The notes beneath the pieces are model-generated. The model had not been told where the DNA came from. It did not search any database and saw only the letters and a program-made list of their open reading frames with translations. A DNA stretch of 64,000 nt from Microcoleus sp. (GTDB lineage: Bacteria > Cyanobacteriota > Cyanobacteriia > Cyanobacteriales > Microcoleaceae): contig JAYFMW010000030.1 in the NCBI GenBank assembly GCA_042408215.1, positions 352,001 through 416,000 of the forward strand, written 5' to 3'. A program made the translations under genes and the position numbers. Below are positions 1 through 9,181 of this stretch, piece after piece; position 1 is the stretch's first letter; every line of letters begins with the position of its first letter.

Positions 1-967
1 ATACCCACTAACTCAGCTTTGTAGGTCATCATTTCTATCAGCTTGGCATGAGGCATTCAACAAAAGGTCTGATTCGTTTTTTTCCCTAACTCTAAATTTT
101 GTTTCCACCCCACATTGTTTCCAATTACTAACTGCCCTATTTCCTCGTCCACCAACCCCTTGACAATCCAACTTCTGGTTGGATGAAGGTAGTTGTCTAC
201 TCGCTTGTTTCGCTTCCAGGTGATTTGCTGAATTGGGCGCGTGGTATATTTCCCTTTTTCAAGTTGCGACTGTAAAAATGCTCGGCGCTTATTGAAACCT
301 TGATTGATTGATTTGAGATGCTTTCCGTCATAAAGAGTTGGCATAAATGTTGGCTTTTTCGCTGCAAAACCCACGAGGCGTTCGAAGCATAAATCTATAC
401 CTGCTATGAGTTTGGGGTTTAAATCCACAATGGTAACAGGCTTTTCATAAACCACCTCAACCATGTAGGTAGCTGTTGCAGGAACTCTCCTTACCTCTCT
501 GACATAAGAGTGCTTTTGTAGCAATTATCATCTCAGTTTGAGCTCGATGAAGTCGCCCGTTATTTTTCTGTTTCCCCCTTTGTCCTATCGATTGGTTATC
601 ATAAATTAACAAGTTACGTCCGCAGGCTTTATGTTTGTATTTGGGGATGTAGGGGCGGGCTAAAAATAGATGGATATCCCGGTAATAAGCCCCCCTCGCC
701 TTTGGCCAAGCTGACCAATCGTGAATAACTTGTTTGAGAACTTGATTGCTAACTTTTGCTGGTAAGGATTTATAGTCGTCTGTGGGTTTGACGATCGCAT
801 ATAACTGTTTTAGACTTAAAGCAAATCCCACCCTCGACCCAAGCCCAAAAAAAACACACCAAAAAAGTGTTGCCTCACCCAATAGTTACCATGCTTGTAG
901 AGATTTTTTGACAGGAATGATCGTTCATCGAACCGTTGAAAAAACTGATGCTGTCTGTCTATGTAAT
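1..967 (-). pseudogene. tnpB: Decayed IS200/IS605-family TnpB, frameshifted; its first codons lie at 5347-5365 beyond an IS607 insertion
   Basis: Overlapping ORFs 57-524, 457-882 and part of 816-1103 give consecutive TnpB pieces (SKNLY..NY.VRQ, LPAKVSNQVL, IAGIDL, LVIGNNVGWKQ); runs off the window edge. Confidence 0.85.
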
Positions 968-1050
968 CTGCTATACAAATACTAGACAAGCCTAGACATT
1001 TGCTTCTTACTTCATCGGGAGCATGGGAGCAGTTATCCCTCAGTAAGCTT

Positions 1051-4000
1051 TCACGGTTTAGCCAACCGCGATACGCCAGTTGCTCCACTTGGGGAAACCC
1101 CAAGACCGCACTGGCTTAAATTTATCGCTGCATTCAAATCTCTATCCATCCCATGACCGCAACTTCCACAGTTGTAAGTTCTTTCTTTCAATGGCATATC
1201 TTGAATATGTCCGCAATTTGAACAGGTTTTGCTTGACGGGAACCATCGGTCGGCAACAATCACTTCACAGCCAAACTTTTTAGCCTTGTATTCTAGCTGA
1301 CGCTTGAATTCATGAAATCCACAGTCAGCTATTACTTGCGCTAACTTGTGATTCTTTAGCATCCCAGAAGTATTTAAATCTTCTACTACTATCGTTGCGT
1401 GGTTTTTGCAGAAGTAAGTAGTGATTTGATGAAGAGTATTCTTTCTGAGGTTTGCTATTTTGGCATGATGTTTTGCTAGCCTTTGTTTGGCCTTAAATCT
1501 CTGGCTGGAGCCTTTCACTTTTCTTGCAAGAACTCTGGATAGTCTCTTGAGTTTTGCCAGGTGCACTTTATAGTGTTTTGGGTTCGGAAATACTACGCCA
1601 GTTGAAAGCGTAGCCAACTCTTTCACCCCCAAGTCCACTCCCACAACTTCATGACTCTTGATGGTAGGTTCATGCTCAAGCGAATAAGCAAAAGCAATAA
1701 ACCAACTGTCGGCGGTACGCGAAATAGTGATTGACTTGCAAGTCGTGTGAGGCAATCCTTCGTAAGTTTTTACCCAGCCGATTGTTGGTAGCTTGATAGA
1801 TGTACCGCCGACAGGTATTGGTTTACCGCCTGCGTCAATTGTGAAAGAGTCGTGATGCCCCTTCTTTTTGAACCTGGGATGTCCACCTTTCTTCGAGAAG
1901 AAACGAGAGAAAGAATCTCCAAGATTGTCAAAGGCGTATTGAGTTATCTTTTGGCAGATTCCGGCTTCCTTGAGCCAGGCAAACTCAGGTTTTACGTGAT
2001 TGTTGAAGAATTTCTTGAGTAGGTATTTGTTGGGCTTTAGTTAGAGTCGATTAGGGAGTTGCCCCCCTAACCTCTCCTTCAGAACGGAACGTGATACTTT
2101 CGCATCATTCCGCTCCTCAATAATCCCACCTTTGTTACAGGTACGATTCAAGACTAACTATCGGGTTTTGACATCTTCTTTAGAATGTATTGACCCGTCT
2201 GTTGCTGTCTTTGCGTCGTGGCAGTGTCTATGCAAAAGTTGTAGGTTATCGTAGGTATCTTTTCCACCTAACGATGTTGGTTTAATATGGTCAACTTCTA
2301 CAATGTCTGTACTTGTGAAATACAAACCACAGTGAGTACAAATACCCTTTTGTCGTTTGATTAATGATGCAACTCTGTTAGGAGTTTCTGGGTACTCGCC
2401 TCTTCGCTTGCTCCAGTAAATCCAGTCTCCATTGTACGGACTAGCCTCACCTTTGACCTTTGTATGCCTTACGATTGGCGTATTTGTATGAGTGAGTAGT
2501 TCTAATCCATCTTCGGTACTGAAGCACCAATTGCGGTCACCTACTGTTCTCCAGTATTTGTCCTTATTGATGCTACCTTTTCCCCTCGATTTAGCCCAGG
2601 CTCTTAATTTTTGCCATGTCAGCATATCTACCCTTGAATAGGTTTGCTTACTAACTTGTGTCGAGTAATATTTCGACCATCCTCTGATGATTGGATTTAA
2701 CTTGCTGATTAAAGCAGCTTGGGAGGTGGTTTTATGAGTGTCTATTACTTCGGCAATCTTGGCTAAATGAGTCTTAACCTTGGCTTTTGATGGTGTGATT
2801 AGTGTTGTAAAACCAAGTTGTATCCCTTGTGAGCTGTTGGCACTTCTGTAATTACCTACTTTGTGCTGCTGTACATGGAATCCAAGGAACTCAAACCCTA
2901 CGTTACCGTCAATCTTAATGAGGGTGTGGGTTAGTTTTGTTTTATTTGGTTTTAATTCTCGTCCCATATCACGTAGCCACTCAGCGATTATCTCTTGACA
3001 TTTCTTGACTACGTTTAAATCTTTGTGGATTATCACGAAATCGTCGGCGTAGCGGATTAGGCTTAAGGCTATACGGTTCTCCCGTTTTTTTCCTTTTAGT
3101 GTTTCCGCGTATTGTTTTATTCTTTCTTCCATACCATGTAGGGCGATATTTGCAAGTAGGGGTGATATTACCCCGCCTTGTGGTGTACCCTCATTAGTAG
3201 GGAATAAAGAATCCTGGTCACAATACCCTGCTTTGAGCCATGATTTGATTTGACGGTTTAAAGTGGGGTATGTTTTTATCTTTGAGAGTAACGCTTTGTG
3301 GTCTATGCGGTCGAAGCATTTAGCAATATCAGCATCAAGCACATATTTGGCTTTTTTATTAATACTGTCGAATATTGCTTGAATCGCATCGTGGCAGGAA
3401 CGTCCTGGTCTAAAACCGTAACTGTTAGGCTCAAATTTTGCCTCCCATTCTGGTTCTAACGCTAGTTTCACTAACGCTTGCAGTGCGCGGTCGTTTATCG
3501 TTGGGATGCCTAATGGTCTAGTTTCAGTAGTACCAGGTTTAGGAATATTAACCCTACGAGTGGGTTTTACTTTACCTGTTAACTTTAACTTGCCTATCAG
3601 GTTGATACGTTGCTTTGGGGTCAATGCTTTTACACCATCCACTCCCGCCGTATTCTTTCCTTGGTTATCTTGTGTCACCCTACGTACCGCGATACACTTT
3701 GCAGACCAAGACCTAATCAGGGTTTTCTGAAGTTTGCGAACTGCTTTAACATCACCACGTTCACTCGCTTGGAATATTCGCTTTTGCAACTTAAAAGTCA
3801 CCCTTTCTAGCTTGCGCCAGTTGATGTCTTTCCACTCCACCGTCTGATTGTTCAGCGTTTTAGATATGTTCATTGCTACTTGTTCAACTCCTTTGGAATT
3901 ACCGAGTATCTGTTAGCATATCCCCCGCATTACCGAGGGCATTCCGCTTTTGATACCATCCCGCTCTCTTACACCGTTCGTTAGCTACTTACTGGTTATC

Positions 4001-4620
4001 GACCTTACCAGAGGTTTAAGAGAGTTACTTCGTTCCGATTACACATTGATTGAGTCTTTAGCGTGATGTTTTCCACCGGGTTTATTGGGCGGTGCTTATA
4101 AGTCGAATGGACATTCGCTTATGCCCTATCCTTGCCTTTTGGCTTGGTGTTATCAAGTTTTACCGCATTTTCAACGGATTTATCCTTGGTCAGCCATTTC
4201 ACCATTTATCATTACGATGGTTCAAACACATCATTGCTTTCGCTACGCATGGACTCTTGCTCGATAGTTACTAGATTTGGCTTCTAGTAGTTCTACCTTT
4301 TAACCCCGCTTTAGTTAATTGGTTGCTACCCAATTAACTAGGGGTTATGCTTTCACCTCTGCACTTGAGGGGAAGGACTTACCGCACGGCGGTTCACCTC
4401 CAAATGTAATCAGTTATCACCAGTCTTATCAACTAGGCTAACCGTCCCATAAGCGTTTCAGCTTATTTTAGGTTAAACGAATCGCACATCCATCTTTATA
4501 AAGGTAACACCAAGTAGCCAGTCCCCAGTTATAAGTAAACCTCGCTATGCCAGCGTGTTTACTCATGACCGTTGATTGACTCTTGTTTAGCTTTAACTTT
4601 GTTTTGATGGACAAAAGCAT
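1051..4620 (-). CDS. tnpB: IS607 TnpB RNA-guided nuclease split by a group II intron (exons 4488-4620 and 1051-2039; 373 aa when spliced)
   Basis: Exon 1 MLLSIKTKLKL...LYKDG joins exon 2 LKPNKYLLKKFFNNH in frame with no stops; RuvC motifs VGVDLG, VVEDL, DRDLNAA; zinc ribbon CSNC/CGSC. Confidence 0.88.
1073..1116 (-). repeat. Small palindromic dispersed repeat inserted in frame near the 3' end of tnpB
   Basis: GCCAGTGC..TTGGGGTTTCCCCAA..GCAACTGGC hairpin; adds about 15 aa (QCGLGVSPSGATGVS) between NLS and RLAK. Confidence 0.55.
2040..4487 (-). mobile_element. Group II intron (IIB-like), 2448 nt
   Basis: 5' end GTGCG at 4487; domain V GAGCGGAATGATGCGAAAGTATCACGTTCCGTTC; domain VI hairpin ending in AAC at 2040; candidate EBS1 GUCCAU (4107-4112) pairs with exon end AUGGAU. 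Confidence 0.93.
2158..3873 (-). CDS. ltrA: Group II intron reverse transcriptase/maturase with C-terminal HNH endonuclease
   Basis: RT0 GKNTAGVDG, PQGGVISPLLANIALH, YADD, X domain (NPIIRGW..YY), CTHC..EVDH..NLQLLHRHCH. Confidence 0.95.
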   Translation of the reverse strand: MNISKTLNNQTVEWKDINWRKLERVTFKLQKRIFQASERGDVKAVRKLQKTLIRSWSAKCIAVRRVTQDNQGKNTAGVDGVKALTPKQRINLIGKLKLTGKVKPTRRVNIPKPGTTETRPLGIPTINDRALQALVKLALEPEWEAKFEPNSYGFRPGRSCHDAIQAIFDSINKKAKYVLDADIAKCFDRIDHKALLSKIKTYPTLNRQIKSWLKAGYCDQDSLFPTNEGTPQGGVISPLLANIALHGMEERIKQYAETLKGKKRENRIALSLIRYADDFVIIHKDLNVVKKCQEIIAEWLRDMGRELKPNKTKLTHTLIKIDGNVGFEFLGFHVQQHKVGNYRSANSSQGIQLGFTTLITPSKAKVKTHLAKIAEVIDTHKTTSQAALISKLNPIIRGWSKYYSTQVSKQTYSRVDMLTWQKLRAWAKSRGKGSINKDKYWRTVGDRNWCFSTEDGLELLTHTNTPIVRHTKVKGEASPYNGDWIYWSKRRGEYPETPNRVASLIKRQKGICTHCGLYFTSTDIVEVDHIKPTSLGGKDTYDNLQLLHRHCHDAKTATDGSIHSKEDVKTR

Positions 4621-4629
4621 TGTTCGACC

Positions 4630-5280
4630 TCAACACTGGATTTCTTGATTGCTCAATTCTGACAGGTCTTGTACGGGTTTGTCAATAGCCTTTTTCAGAT
4701 TCTCCTTGATTTCCTTGGAGTAATTTCGCCAACCGTACAAACGGCCAGAAAAACAGTGGATTATCGCCATCAAGTCTTCTACTAATTCATGTTGCGGAGA
4801 CAGTGATTCTTGATTGGCGACTACAATTTCACATCCCACTGATATCGCAAGCTCCTGAATGAATTCAAAGGCAAATCTGCACATCCTATCCTTGTGTGCA
4901 ATTACAATTGTTGATATTTCGCCTTTGAGCATTGACAGCATGATTGCTAGAAACTTTTTTCTCTTAAAGTTTAACCCACCACCAATTTCCGATACCCAGT
5001 CATCAACCGTCAGTCCTCTACCTAGGCAAAAAGCTTCCATAGCAAGTAACTGATTTTTCAGTTCTGGCTTCTGCCCGTTAGATGAAACTCGACAGTAAAC
5101 GATTGTCTTTCGGTTGGCTTCTATGGGTTTCAGACCGTTGGCTATCAAGAGATCGTCTTCTGTGTAGAAGCGATGGCCTGACAGGGTGCGCTTGGCTGGC
5201 AACTTCCCCGCGACATCCCAGCGCTGGAGGGTCTTTACTGATAGCCCAAGCTTTTTTGCGAATTCGTGTGGTTTGAACAT
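4630..5280 (-). CDS. tnpA: IS607 TnpA serine recombinase
   Basis: MerR-like HTH (KTLQRWD) followed by YCRVSS and HKDRM.RF catalytic motifs. Confidence 0.93.
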   Translation of the reverse strand: MFKPHEFAKKLGLSVKTLQRWDVAGKLPAKRTLSGHRFYTEDDLLIANGLKPIEANRKTIVYCRVSSNGQKPELKNQLLAMEAFCLGRGLTVDDWVSEIGGGLNFKRKKFLAIMLSMLKGEISTIVIAHKDRMCRFAFEFIQELAISVGCEIVVANQESLSPQHELVEDLMAIIHCFSGRLYGWRNYSKEIKENLKKAIDKPVQDLSELSNQEIQC

Positions 5281-5998
5281 GGTACACGTAAGAGGTTTGT
5301 CGGCAAGTGTACCACTTTGTTTATTTATTCACTAGCTAGGTACTAGCTCTTTCAACAACCATCATATTTTATGGAGGTAGAAAAGTTTATGGGCTTGTGT
5401 CCGGTAATGTGCGGTAAAATCCAGGGATTATCTGATCTAGTTTAGCACCCCAAAGCCGAAACAAGTCAACCGAAGGTAGAAGGCTGGCTTTCGGCTACAG
5501 GCGCTGCTCACCCAAGGGCGATCGCTCCTTGCACTTCAGCAGGCGCTCCCCCATGCCTTGAGTTGCAGGTCGTCTGGTCTCCGTCAATTCAACCCAAGCT
5601 CTGCTGGCCACAGGTAAAGTAGGGATTTGAACCGCGCTACCTTAGAATAGGGGAATGCCAAGCGCCTGCGCGTGAGTAGCAGGCGAGCAAAAAAGTATTC
5701 ACGCACCAAAACCGGACGGCTAATCAATGCTGATGGGAATGGTTGTTTGAATATTGGTCACAAGTTAACGACACTGCGGTGGGCGGTTTTGTAGTTAACG
5801 AGCGGTTTAACAGCAGCCGATAAAAGCGTACAAACATTAAATTTAGGCGAGTTCGATATTTGTCTAGATTTTTTGGCACTATGCCAACAATCAGGCAGAT
5901 CTGCGACACTTATTACAGTACAAAGCCTTGATTGTCGGTTGACGCGCACCTAGTCTTTTTCAACTCAGACACGGTTTTAAGGAGAACACTTTAGCTGC

Positions 5999-7237
5999 AT
6001 GCAGGGAAATTTGAGTGAAATTGACATCCGCAGCATCCTGCAACTGATTGAGTTAGGTCAGCGAACAGGAGAACTGTTCGTAGAGGCCTACAGCTCCATC
6101 GTCAGCAGCACTGGTACTCAACCTACCCAGCGCTCCCTTGCAGGACAATCCTGGTTTGTCTTCTGCTTCAATGGTCAGATTATTTACGCTACCCAGAGTG
6201 CGGGCAGTTTGTTTCGCTTGCGCGACTACCTGCGTCGCTACAAAGCAGACACCGCCCTCGACCAAATCCAAGTTCCCTACATGGCTTCTACCAATGCGCC
6301 AGAATACGGCTACCTGTGGGCGCTGCTAGAAAACCACATCCTCACCCCAGCTCAAGGGCGCAACATCATCCACAGCATGATCCACGAAACCCTCTTTGAC
6401 TTGCTCAGTCTCCACCAGGGTTCCTTCACCTTTGAAATGGGGTCTGCCTTAGCTCCTCAATTAACCAGCTTAGAAATTAGCTCCCTGCTGGCGAAGATTG
6501 TCAAACAGGTACAGCAGTGGAAGCAGTTTCACCCTCACATTCAGTCGCCCAACCAATGCCCGGTGATTTCAGACCCCGCCGAGTTGCAAGTGGCATTGCC
6601 TGTCAATACTTTTAATACTCTCAGACGCTGGGCTGACGGGCACACTTCGATCCGTCAAATGGCTCGCTACCTCAACCGAGATGTGCTGAGTGTCGCTAAG
6701 GCGATATACCCCTTCGTGCAGCAGGGATTGGTGCAACTATTTTACGAGCCTTCTGTTGCCCCTGCCAATAGCAAAAAAGAATGGTCGTCCCCAGAAACTA
6801 AAGTTCCCAAAGTTGTCTGTATTGACGACGACAATGTTATTCGCAAAACAGTCGAGTCAATTTTAAACGAACACGGTTACGAAGCTACTGCCATCAGCAG
6901 TCCCCTCAAAGCCTTGAGTTTAGTTTTTAAACTCAAACCCGATTTAATTCTGTGCGACATCGCCATGCCCGAACTCGACGGCTACGAAATTTGCGCTATG
7001 CTGCGCAATTCTAGCGCTTTCCGGCAGACGCCGATCGTCATGCTGACTGGTATCGACGGATTTATCGATCGAGTTCAGGCCCGGATGGCGGGAGCCACTG
7101 ACTACTTTACCAAACCGTTTGGCGAAAGCGAGTTATTAATGCTGGTAGAAAAATATATCGGCCCTGGTTGCCCGGAACTCCATCCATCGTCCAAATTATT
7201 AACCCAGGAACTCGATCGCGAATTAGAAGAGAATTGA
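5999..7237 (+). CDS. PatA-family response regulator (PATAN + receiver; PilG/HmpA-like)
   Basis: MQGNLSEIDIRSILQLIELGQRTGEL N-terminus; receiver domain IDDD..LCDIAMP..TKPF; first gene of the chemosensory cluster. Confidence 0.9.
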   Translation: MQGNLSEIDIRSILQLIELGQRTGELFVEAYSSIVSSTGTQPTQRSLAGQSWFVFCFNGQIIYATQSAGSLFRLRDYLRRYKADTALDQIQVPYMASTNAPEYGYLWALLENHILTPAQGRNIIHSMIHETLFDLLSLHQGSFTFEMGSALAPQLTSLEISSLLAKIVKQVQQWKQFHPHIQSPNQCPVISDPAELQVALPVNTFNTLRRWADGHTSIRQMARYLNRDVLSVAKAIYPFVQQGLVQLFYEPSVAPANSKKEWSSPETKVPKVVCIDDDNVIRKTVESILNEHGYEATAISSPLKALSLVFKLKPDLILCDIAMPELDGYEICAMLRNSSAFRQTPIVMLTGIDGFIDRVQARMAGATDYFTKPFGESELLMLVEKYIGPGCPELHPSSKLLTQELDRELEEN

Positions 7238-7299
7238 CTTTACTCAGCATAAGGGTTCAAAGTGCAAATATAATATAGAACCCATTTGAGATCTTTTAA

Positions 7300-7497
7300 C
7301 GATCGCCCGCAGCAAGCGATCGACTCACAGCAGTCGATCGCTCACAGCAGTCGATCGCTCACAGCAGTCGATCGGCTTCACAGCAGGCGATCGCTCACAG
7401 CAGGCGATCGCTCACAGCAGGCGATCGCTCACAGCAGGCGATCGGCTTCACAGCAGGCGATCGGCTTCACAGCAGGCGATCGGCTTCACGATCGCCC
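7300..7497. repeat. Tandem array of 17-19 bp units, each containing HIP1 or a HIP1 variant, inside the IS5 left arm
   Basis: About 11 units of GCGATCGCTCACAGCAG / GCGATCGGCTTCACAGCAG. Confidence 0.9.
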
Positions 7498-7616
7498 AGA
7501 AAAGCTCTTTTTTTGAGGTGGTTCGGTTTAAAAGAGCGCGCTCGATAGATTTTCGAGTTGGTTGTCCCCCATCAAGTTTTGAGGTAAAATTACCAGAAAA
7601 AGACCCGAAAGCCATC

Positions 7617-8465
7617 ATGCCGTATTCTAGTAACCTAACGGACTCCGAATGGGAAATTCTCGAGCCTCTACTACATCAAATATTACCCGTTAAAAAGCCA
7701 ACTCGACCTCCTAGCTGGACTAAAAGAGAAATCTTAGATGGTATCTTCTATCAACTCAAGAATGGGTGTAATTGGGAAGACTTACCTAAAGACTTACCAC
7801 CCTACTCAACTGTATATTGGTATTACAAGCAATGGCGCTCAGAAGGAGTGCTTGAAGATTTGATGAAAGTCTTACATTCTCAAGTACGCGAACAAGTCAA
7901 AAAAAACCGAAGTGGACTACGTTGATCATTCTCGACTCACAAGCCGTGAAAAACACCTGTAATGCCAGTCTTGCATCGAAAGGATTTTGTTTCTACAAAT
8001 CGACGAATGGTATTAAAAGGCATCTAGCCGTTGATACGCTTGGGTTTCCCTTCTTTACTCATTGTACAAAAGCCCATGTATCAGATGATGCGGGTTGGAT
8101 TGAAATGTTGAGTAAAAACATCGATTATTTCAAGTCTAAACCAGTCAATATTCCCAAAATCACAATATTGCACGGGCGACGGTTATCACCCTGAACGTCT
8201 GACTATTGAGTTCAAGAAAATTTCTCCACAAATTCTGACCAAAATTAAGTTTGAACTCTCAAAAAAACCATCAAAACCACAAAAAGAAGCCGAGGGAAAA
8301 TCGGGATTTGTTCCGGTTAGGGCAAGGTGGGTGATTGAACGGTCAAATAGTTGGATGGAAAGATGCAAAATACTCGTTAAGAACTTCGAGAGAACTTTAG
8401 CTAATGCAACTGCCAAGGTAAATCTTTGTTTTATTAGGCTGATGGTTAAAAGGCTTGCGGTCTAA
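7617..8465 (+). pseudogene. IS5-family DDE transposase with an A8 slippery site (7899-7906) and a second frameshift near 8175
   Basis: YSSNLTDSEW, W.DLPKDLPPYSTVY, IILDSQAVK, KRHLAVDTLG; DGYHPE and RWVIERSNSW lie in a different frame. Confidence 0.8.
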
Positions 8466-8773
8466 AAGATGTCAAATGGGTTCTATATTTGTTCTCCAGT
8501 GACTCGTTTAACCTAAATGAGCATAAATACTTAGATGCGGTGAGCTTGGTTCAATTCACTAATCTTGACAACAGACTTTCATAGGAGGGTGCAAGTCCCG
8601 AATTGCAGGTGCAGCCGTGAAAGCATAACCTCTAGTTGTATAGAAGGTGCAATTAATATTTAGTCGAAACGATGTTACCTTCATAAGAATTAATGCGGGA
8701 TGCGGGAAACGAGCGAGACTTTAGTCCTTCCTAGGGAAGCGGCGCGGGGGACTTCAGTCCCCGTGTTCTTTCT

Positions 8774-9181
8774 TTAGTTGGCCGAGTGATGTGGATCTTC
8801 TATATATTTTTTTACCACTTCACTACTAATATTACCTGCCGTACTCACAAAATAGCTGCTCGTCCATAAAGATGGCAGCTTTTTTAGTTGCGGGAACTCT
8901 GCCCGCAAATAACGGCTAGAACGACCCTTAAATAATTTAACGACTAACGCAGGGGTATCCGTTGGCTTAACAGCTACAAACAGATGTACATGGTCTGGCG
9001 CTAGAAGTAGCGCCAGAATGTCCCAACCTTTTTCAATTGACAGTTCCAGAAATATTTGGCGGGTTCTAGTTGCCACGTTCCCGATTAGAACTTTCTTGCG
9101 GCGCTTAGGGATAAAGACGAAGTGGTAGTTAAGTAAGAACTTGACGTGGTTGTGGGTTTTGTATTCAGGTAGTGGCAACAT
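8774..9181 (-). CDS. tnpA: IS200-type Y1 (HUH) transposase
   Basis: YHFVFIPKRR, DHVHLFV, LWTSSYF, KKYIE. Confidence 0.92.
   Translation of the reverse strand: MLPLPEYKTHNHVKFLLNYHFVFIPKRRKKVLIGNVATRTRQIFLELSIEKGWDILALLLAPDHVHLFVAVKPTDTPALVVKLFKGRSSRYLRAEFPQLKKLPSLWTSSYFVSTAGNISSEVVKKYIEDPHHSAN

Follow-up and report, generated by a model that had tools for sequence, protein, structure and literature searches.

A group II intron in an IS607-type tnpB gene nested within a decayed tnpB-only element of Microcoleus

Introduction

RmInt1 in ISRm2011-2 is reportedly an example of a group II intron lodged in an insertion sequence (IS). The accessible text of Waldern et al. (2020; PMC7306698), citing Dai and Zimmerly (2002), presents bacterial group II introns resident in IS transposase genes as "hiding in mobile elements", and the accessible text of PMC8919778 treats group II introns within mobile elements in general terms. 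Table S3 of PMC7306698, as far as it is accessible, places chloroplast-like CL2 introns beside COG0675/IS605-OrfB (Microcystis) and beside IS607 pseudogenes (Dactylococcopsis, Oscillatoria). Here we describe a locus at the start of a 64,000-nucleotide stretch of a Microcoleus sp. genome (the whole stretch analysed, G000:C30:352001-416000, is called the window; genome G000 comprises 7.36 Mb in 30 contigs at 45% G+C), where a group II intron lies within an IS607-type tnpB and the IS607 element lies within a decayed tnpB-only element, with all parts on the minus strand. The tnpB family is the ancestor of Cas12. Like the introns in IS transposase genes, this one is a group II intron with a reverse transcriptase (RT)/maturase, placed in sense orientation inside an IS gene and paired to it through exon-binding and intron-binding sites (EBS/IBS), and it would cost the cell nothing because its carrier is dispensable. 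Unlike them, it has hit tnpB, the gene of an RNA-guided nuclease and not of a recombinase, and its carrier is an otherwise intact IS607 nested in a second tnpB element.

IStrons, which Tourasse is said to have described in 2014, are reportedly group I introns fused to IS605/IS607 tnpA/tnpB. In the accessible text of Zedaveinyte et al. (PMC10690162) they combine a self-splicing intron with a TnpB-bearing transposon. The Microcoleus locus likewise joins a self-splicing intron physically to a TnpB transposon, and in both arrangements RNA processing and the production of nuclease or guide can interfere with each other. An IStron is spliced from host genes as a whole and is built on a group I ribozyme, with the IS inside it or at its 3' end, whereas here a group II retroelement sits inside the IS nuclease gene, its splicing would protect tnpB only and no co-moving fused unit was seen. 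The sole ribozyme that Rfam found is group II and lies inside the IS, and a group I ribozyme of the IStron kind was not among the matches.

Nested group II introns are also said to occur in Thermosynechococcus and Trichodesmium. Cyanobacterial twintrons and nested group II introns are mentioned in the accessible text of PMC8919778. The present locus resembles these in the HNH-bearing intron-encoded protein (IEP), the cyanobacterial host and the nesting in mobile elements, and differs in that the nesting found in the window is that of an intron in an IS in an IS. The accessible portions of PMC7923331, PMC10690162, PMC3073962, PMC4853749 and PMC8919778 do not describe a group II intron inside tnpB, and neighbouring introns and tnpB genes are listed only in Table S3 of PMC7306698. 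No published discussion of the consequence of such an intron for TnpB function was found in the accessible literature, bioRxiv supplements being outside the search. We read the locus as three successive insertions of selfish elements in which the intron and IS607 are apparently intact and full TnpB is conditional on splicing, and we give this reading a probability of roughly 0.55.

Results

Architecture of the locus

At the level of sequence the three-level nesting is confirmed to the base, and both junctions can be cleanly resolved (Table 1). An earlier note on this DNA, drawn from the letters alone, had the anatomy and both reconstructed junctions right, as intron-free and empty-site homologues align across them without gaps. 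The genome searches that it proposed were run; they returned intron-free IS607 copies at C10, C13 and C20, all contiguous at the exon junction, and an empty paralogue of the host tnpB at G000:C11.

Table 1. Features of the nested locus, with coordinates in the window and the basis of each assignment.
Feature	Position	Strand	Basis
Host tnpB-only element, left end and first codons (ATG ATG GTT GTT GAA AGA G, start 5364)	5347..5449	-	Similarity to empty paralogue G000:C11
Host tnpB remainder, pseudogene, extending past the window to G000:C30:351684	1..967	-	Alignment to intact 408-aa C11
IS607-family element, 4,379 bp with intron, 1,931 bp without	968..5346	-	Ends common to 4/4 own-genome copies
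tnpA, 216-aa serine recombinase, N-terminal MerR-type helix-turn-helix	4630..5280	-	NF033518, Pfam
tnpB exon 1, 44 codons + 1 nt	4488..4620	-	Pfam HTH_OrfB_IS605; intron-free copies continue in frame
Group II intron, 2,448 nt, 5' GTGCG ... 3' AC	2040..4487	-	Rfam; precise absence in paralogues and environmental contigs
EBS2 (ATAAA)	4205..4209	-	Pairs with exon TTTAT at -15..-11
EBS1 (GTCCATT)	4106..4112	-	Pairs with exon GATGGAT at -7..-1, two G-U pairs
IEP, 571 aa, open	2158..3873	-	RVT_N, RT (YADD present), maturase, HNH endonuclease
Intron domains V and VI, bulged branch-point A at 2047	2040..2117	-	Rfam RF00029 alignment
tnpB exon 2, 328 codons + stop	1051..2039	-	NF040570; RuvC D/E/D and CxxC..CxxC zinc finger present
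Private in-frame 45-nt insertion (15 aa) in tnpB	1075..1119	-	Absent from 3/3 own-genome copies and G022
IS607 right end 3' of tnpB stop, presumed part of omegaRNA scaffold	968..1050	-	Conserved in 4/4 copies

The interrupted IS607 tnpB

The intron splits codon 45 of the IS607-family tnpB. Joining exons 4620..4488 and 2039..1051 by coordinates gives 1,122 nt, i.e., 373 amino acids (aa) plus stop, and the joined product reads ..WCYLYKDG/LKPNKYLLKKFF.. (..YKDG-LKPNKY..). The coordinate join and the intron-free homologues thus bear out the earlier claim that removal of 2040-4487 restores an open 373-aa TnpB. The three intron-free copies in the same genome (C10, 83% identical; C13, 78%; C20, 76%) are contiguous in DNA exactly at the exon junction, and their proteins read YKDGLKPNKY or DRDGLKPNKY across it, gap-free. 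A copy in the congener G022, which likewise shows no gap at this point, encodes 358 aa, with 323 of 358 residues identical, and the C20 copy also encodes 358 aa.

Exon 1 matches Pfam HTH_OrfB_IS605 (E 1.1e-10). Exon 2 matches Pfam OrfB_IS605 and Cas12f1-like_TNB and scores 260 bits against NCBIfam NF040570 guided_TnpB (cut-off 100); it aligns to residues 67-373 of ISDra2 TnpB (8bf8; E 9e-48), with the RuvC acidic motifs VGVDLG, VVVEDL and DRDLNAAIN and the zinc finger CSNCGH..CGSCGH aligning to the same protein. Without splicing, the frame of exon 1 reaches a stop after six intron codons (CAIRLT) and gives a 50-aa stub, and the 44 N-terminal residues matching HTH_OrfB_IS605 are not encoded in exon 2; full-length TnpB could therefore be made only after splicing. 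Of the earlier statement that this TnpB is made only after splicing, the sequence requirement stands, and the splicing itself is left ambiguous by the joins seen in RNA libraries.

The IS607 right end that follows the tnpB stop (968..1050), conserved in all four copies of the genome, is presumed, by analogy with other elements of this type, to belong to the omegaRNA scaffold. No omegaRNA/RAGATH-type Rfam family was found at this end (Rfam, E <= 0.1, positions 1..9000).

The group II intron

On the minus strand the 5' boundary of the intron reads ...AAAGATGGAT/GTGCG... at 4488/4487 and the 3' boundary ...CGACTCTAAC/TAAAGCCC at 2040/2039; with longer flanks the two read ...TATAAAGATGGAT/GTGCGATTCG... 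and ...ATCGACTCTAAC/TAAAGCCCAAC..., respectively. The boundaries are of the GUGYG/AY type, with GTGCG at 4487..4483 and ..TAAC ending at 2040. Rfam Intron_gpII (RF00029, domains V-VI; gathering score 40) matches 2117..2040 on the minus strand over the full model (1-77) with 57.8 bits (E 1.3e-9), and the bulged branch-point A of the consensus corresponds to the A at 2047. The IEP open reading frame (ORF; 3873..2158) matches Pfam RVT_1 (E 7.6e-48), GIIM (1.5e-17), HNH (5.4e-14) and RVT_N, and it passes the NCBIfam TIGR04416 equivalog for group II intron RT/maturases (333.7 bits, cut-off 300). Within the window the intron is uninterrupted. A twintron was seen in a DNA contig of run X1, a freshwater-sediment metagenome: in a locus that otherwise nearly matches this one, a second copy of the intron 5' end starts within the intron at 4234/4235.

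The first 550 nt of the intron were aligned with those of an 84%-identical intron at G000:C17. In this alignment two hairpin loops differ between the two introns while the stems are conserved: loop 1 is AATGTCCATT in the window and GTTTTTCCTC in C17, and loop 2 is ..AATGATAAA.. and ..AATTTGCAA.., respectively. The 5' exons are CTTTATAAAGATGGAT in the window and CTTGCAAAAAGGGAAA in C17, and each loop version is complementary to its own exon. The ATAAA loop of the window is TTTGCAA in C17, changing in step with the C17 exon TTGCAAA, and the GTCCATT loop is TTTCCT, changing in step with the C17 exon AGGGAA/GGGAAA. Because the loops covary with their own 5' exons, they are EBS2 and EBS1, respectively, and the intron has the pairing loops appropriate to the tnpB site in which it lies. 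Assignment to class IIB, chloroplast-like CL2, is a guess based on the EBS2, the HNH domain of the IEP and the host being a cyanobacterium.

The IS607 element

The IS607 element runs for 4,379 bp (5346..968) between ends that all four copies in the genome have in common, ..AG/CTAGTACCTAGCTAG on the left and TATAGCAG/ on the right (GAGCAG/ in C20). In each of the four copies an AG occurs both in the left flank and at the right end of the element, and because it is shared the boundary is ambiguous by 2 nt. Target duplication is absent, the empty-site paralogue having the same length; judged from sequence, a shared AG without target duplication would fit serine-recombinase crossover at a shared dinucleotide. 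The tnpA product (5280..4630) scores 197 bits against NF033518 transpos_IS607 (cut-off 110) and matches Pfam MerR over residues 6-39 and Resolvase over residues 60-185; tnpB lies directly 3' of tnpA (tnpA stop 4630, tnpB ATG 4620). By tblastn this tnpA is the sole full-length one of its subfamily in the genome, the other copies above 75% identity being fragments, and some 20 other recombinase genes of IS607 type share no more than 45% identity with it. The other three IS607 copies each lack most of tnpA, by different deletions, and intron-free IS607 copies with full tnpA are present in congeners (G022:C405, G008:C485 and G018:C113).

Two further observations concern the ends of this element and its derivatives. 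In tnpA-less IS607 derivatives (the C10 copy and contigs in runs X16 and X17) deletions end repeatedly at 4644, which may mark a favored site of deletion or recombination immediately upstream of tnpB. The 26 nt flanking the IS607 right end (941-967) are identical in the empty C11 paralogue (L001) except for the base before the junction, which is C for G. If the element behaves like those that have been studied, this flank would be the TnpB guide and C11 a candidate target or homing site of the nuclease.

The host element

The IS607 insertion splits codon 7 of a 1.39-kb tnpB-only element. The flanks 5449..5347 and 967..C30:351684 match a single 1.39-kb unit at G000:C11 with 87-88% identity (87.6% over 967 nt), straight across the insertion point, the stretch of similarity upstream of the junction being about 103 nt long and ending at 5347/5348. 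Removing 5346..968 gives ATGATGGTTGTTGAAAGAG/ATTACATAGAC, i.e., MMVVERDYIDRQHQFF; C11 is contiguous at this point and of the same length (..GAAAGAC ATTACATAG = MVVERHYIDRQHQF). The earlier proposal that removal of 968-5346 at a shared AG restores the host start is thus upheld by a paralogue without gaps.

The C11 paralogue encodes an intact 408-aa TnpB-family protein (NF040570 guided_TnpB 141 bits, cut-off 100; Pfam OrfB_IS605 and Cas12f1-like_TNB). Relative to C11, the host tnpB in the window has 14 additional nt near 841, one near 509 and one outside the window, as well as an in-frame TGA, and its first RuvC motif is altered (GIDLCFER where C11 has GIDLGIDR). Given the indels and the TGA, the host tnpB is dead irrespective of the IS607 insertion. 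The 1.39-kb unit common to both copies, whose ends were placed by loss of similarity between these two copies only, holds tnpB only and no Y1 (HUH) TnpA. The label "IS605 tnpB" in the earlier note therefore suits the gene family (NF040570, Pfam OrfB_IS605) and not the element, which has no Y1 transposase and is at best a tnpB-only (IS1341-like) element.

Intron-free and intron-bearing forms in public runs

At least half of the sampled words of 900-5450 occur in each of ten public runs, and six of the word-bearing runs are RNA libraries. Contigs of the RNA libraries X12, X16 and X17 and of the DNA run X1 were compared with 900-5450, using assembled contigs only and ignoring joints with sides of fewer than 30 letters. 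The exact exon join 2039/4488, which skips 2,448 nt, was present in one contig each of X16 and X17, which come from two studies. The X17 contig is 723 nt long and differs from the window at 0 of 362 and 2 of 157 letters (2 in 519), and the X16 contig is 580 nt long and differs at 1 of 461 and 0 of 119 letters (1 in 580). The join was not found in contigs of X12 or X1. The exons of the intron-less form are at least 99.6% identical to those of the window, compared with at most 83% for the paralogues in the same genome; intron gain (or removal) is therefore recent. Contigs of X12 are identical to the intron over 2127-4392, and their sole exon cover is one 121-nt piece with 10 differing letters, the uncovered parts carrying no weight.

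A draft genome of 30 contigs with about 235 tnpB loci and nine group II introns offers many repeats that could be mis-joined in assembly. An assembly chimera is nevertheless highly improbable, since the sequences on either side of each junction belong, base for base, to a single interrupted gene, and independent contigs span both the junction of exon 1 and the intron (X1, DNA, 4235-5034) and the IS607 left end into the host (X16, 4930-5375). The X1 contig in particular shows that the nesting did not arise in the assembly of this genome, and half or more of the sampled words of the region recur in ten runs.

Terminator-like sites numbered 3, against 4.6 +/- 2.1 expected, and offered nothing usable. 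A tRNA-like look of 5640-5660 was considered and rejected, as a tRNA scan of 1..9000 found none.

Evidence against an active, spliced locus

Several observations weigh against an intact intron whose splicing yields TnpB. Splicing is unproven: the exon joins would fit it, but the contigs do not separate spliced RNA from contaminating DNA or from an intron-free DNA allele. The X17 join contig also skips 4645-5295 (tnpA), and its join probably stems from a tnpA-less, intron-free DNA variant and not from spliced RNA of the locus. Promoter-like sites are not above chance (6, versus 7.4 +/- 3.3 in shuffles). The intron is single-copy in the genome, its nearest relative being the 84%-identical one at C17, and the cognate site in the C13 copy of IS607 (CTTTATCAAGATGGAT/TAAAGCCT), with one mismatch in -16..-1, is unoccupied. 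The near-perfect C13 site being empty, retrohoming is not brisk, if it occurs at all. The private 45-nt insertion in tnpB directly follows the last RuvC motif, encodes 15 aa (SQCGLGVSPSGATGV-like) and may impair TnpB or the guide RNA. It contains a 7-bp hairpin (CTTGGGG-TTT-CCCCAAG) and has no other copy in the genome, and contigs of X1 and X17 hold a form 45 nt shorter at 1075-1119, in which 52 nt are replaced by 7.

These features could also be those of a fossil pile-up, in which the intron in effect knocks out tnpB, with little or no splicing in vivo, and leaves IS607 stranded, the open frames reflecting recency. We consider this account possible and the less likely of the two. In its favor, the composite of intron and IS607 is single-copy, the C13 site is empty, tnpB carries the 45-nt insertion, all three sister IS607 copies in the genome are tnpA-deleted, so that the subfamily is decaying, and a related intron at C6 is 5'-truncated. 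Against it, the ORFs of 571, 216 and (spliced) 373 aa are all open with their catalytic motifs kept, the EBS-IBS pairings are intact and domains V and VI are canonical.

The earlier note also suggested that the intron can spread with the IS. This is possible in principle and gained no support: the composite occurs once in this genome, and no match joining IS607 exon 1 to the intron was found in 40 related genomes, among the matches listed.

Association of the intron lineage with tnpB

The genome has nine matches to the group II domain V/VI model and, with a purpose-built profile, about 235 tnpB loci covering 216,181 bases, or 2.9% of the genome; a genome search with Pfam TNB gave at least 150 scored matches. 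All three IEP-bearing introns of the window lineage (window, C17 and C6) lie inside, or within 37 nt of, a same-strand tnpB coding sequence. At C17 the intron disrupts a different tnpB within its C-terminal tail, and the frame of that gene continues into intron sequence. The C6 intron is 5'-truncated; a tnpB match lies just downstream of it, and a decayed tnpB precedes it. A homologous tnpB position for the C6 intron was considered and dropped, because the truncated 5' end, together with a 3' end that falls 37 nt upstream of the corresponding position, does not allow the sites to be compared. Seven related introns in congeners were compared: the one in G011 divides a tnpB cleanly at profile positions 251/252, and the other six have no tnpB in the flanks examined. 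None of the six other group II introns of the genome is within 290 nt of tnpB.

Such a distribution might reflect a specialised coupling, in which an HNH-bearing intron lineage prefers tnpB (OMEGA) elements, rides them and gates the nuclease by splicing, as a group II counterpart of the intron/guide-RNA interplay of IStrons. The three of three introns in or near tnpB, when tnpB makes up 2.9% of the DNA, argue for it, as does the fourth case in G011; the four sites differ, so the insertions were independent. We nonetheless regard coupling as unlikely, given the six congener introns and the six other introns of the genome that have no tnpB nearby and the lack, among the matches listed, of the composite at a second locus; survivorship in junk DNA explains the enrichment without coupling. 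Within this genome the lineage is truly enriched at tnpB, for which survival in dispensable DNA is the simplest explanation. If coupling were true, the C17 case, with an intron in the 3' tail of tnpB, may extend the dependence on splicing to the guide RNA.

Some details of these related introns may be recorded. The C17 intron (G000:C17:622600-625078; L005 2101-4579) follows a CCCTT-GCAAA-AAGGG hairpin, and the tnpB there is otherwise open. Since the guide-RNA scaffold usually starts in this region in comparable elements, protein tail and guide RNA might both be splicing-dependent at C17. The G011 intron (L016, G011:C167:29000-38000; 2072-7033) has an insert of about 2.5 kb between 2910 and 5419, and this locus may have four levels of nesting.

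Other repeats and neighbouring genes

Five ORF-less group II introns of 775 nt in the genome differ by 0-1 bases (C6:102208-102982, C6:417049-417823, C6:738294-739068, C20:318719-319493 and C30:136577-137351). Each follows ..ATATCAATTCCGGT, within a small palindrome (ATTCCGGT/AACTGCACCGGAAT). This 775-nt intron is recently amplified and non-autonomous and must borrow an IEP in trans. In the window, two consecutive ORFs on the plus strand at 7518-8194 (135 and 90 aa) resemble a frameshift-split transposase, and the adjacent 7286-7516 is rich in repeated words coding for SRRS/AGDR.

Discussion

The anatomy of the locus, its boundaries, open frames, catalytic motifs and exon-binding pairings are directly visible in the DNA. 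On our preferred reading of three successive insertions, a tnpB-only element would have arrived at the locus first. IS607 would then have integrated, through its serine recombinase, at the AG in codon 7 of the host tnpB, and the mobile intron, with its RT, maturase and HNH endonuclease, would have retro-inserted in sense orientation at the EBS1/EBS2-paired site in codon 45 of the IS607 tnpB. The tnpA-tnpB transcript would serve as precursor, and the 373-aa TnpB would be translated only if the intron is spliced out. The intron would thereby "hide" in dispensable mobile DNA, with splicing keeping the cost to its carrier low. That splicing takes place, that TnpB and its guide RNA are active and that IS607 arrived before the intron is what we infer for this locus.

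A pile-up of this kind is an ordinary habit of bacterial mobile DNA. The locus is ordinary nesting of selfish elements and an unusually complete example of an established type; the survival of mobile introns in other mobile DNA is already established, and the value of the locus is as material and not as a new principle. The enrichment of the intron lineage in tnpB genes is the only lead able to grow further.

As material, the locus supplies a clean natural example of an RNA-guided nuclease gene expressible only through group II intron splicing. Alleles for comparison are at hand within the same genome and genus, namely IS607 copies lacking the intron, a host site without the IS607 and a cognate homing site that is unoccupied. 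The locus would therefore be a convenient test bed for asking whether such introns still splice and home, and what effect they have on TnpB-driven transposon retention.

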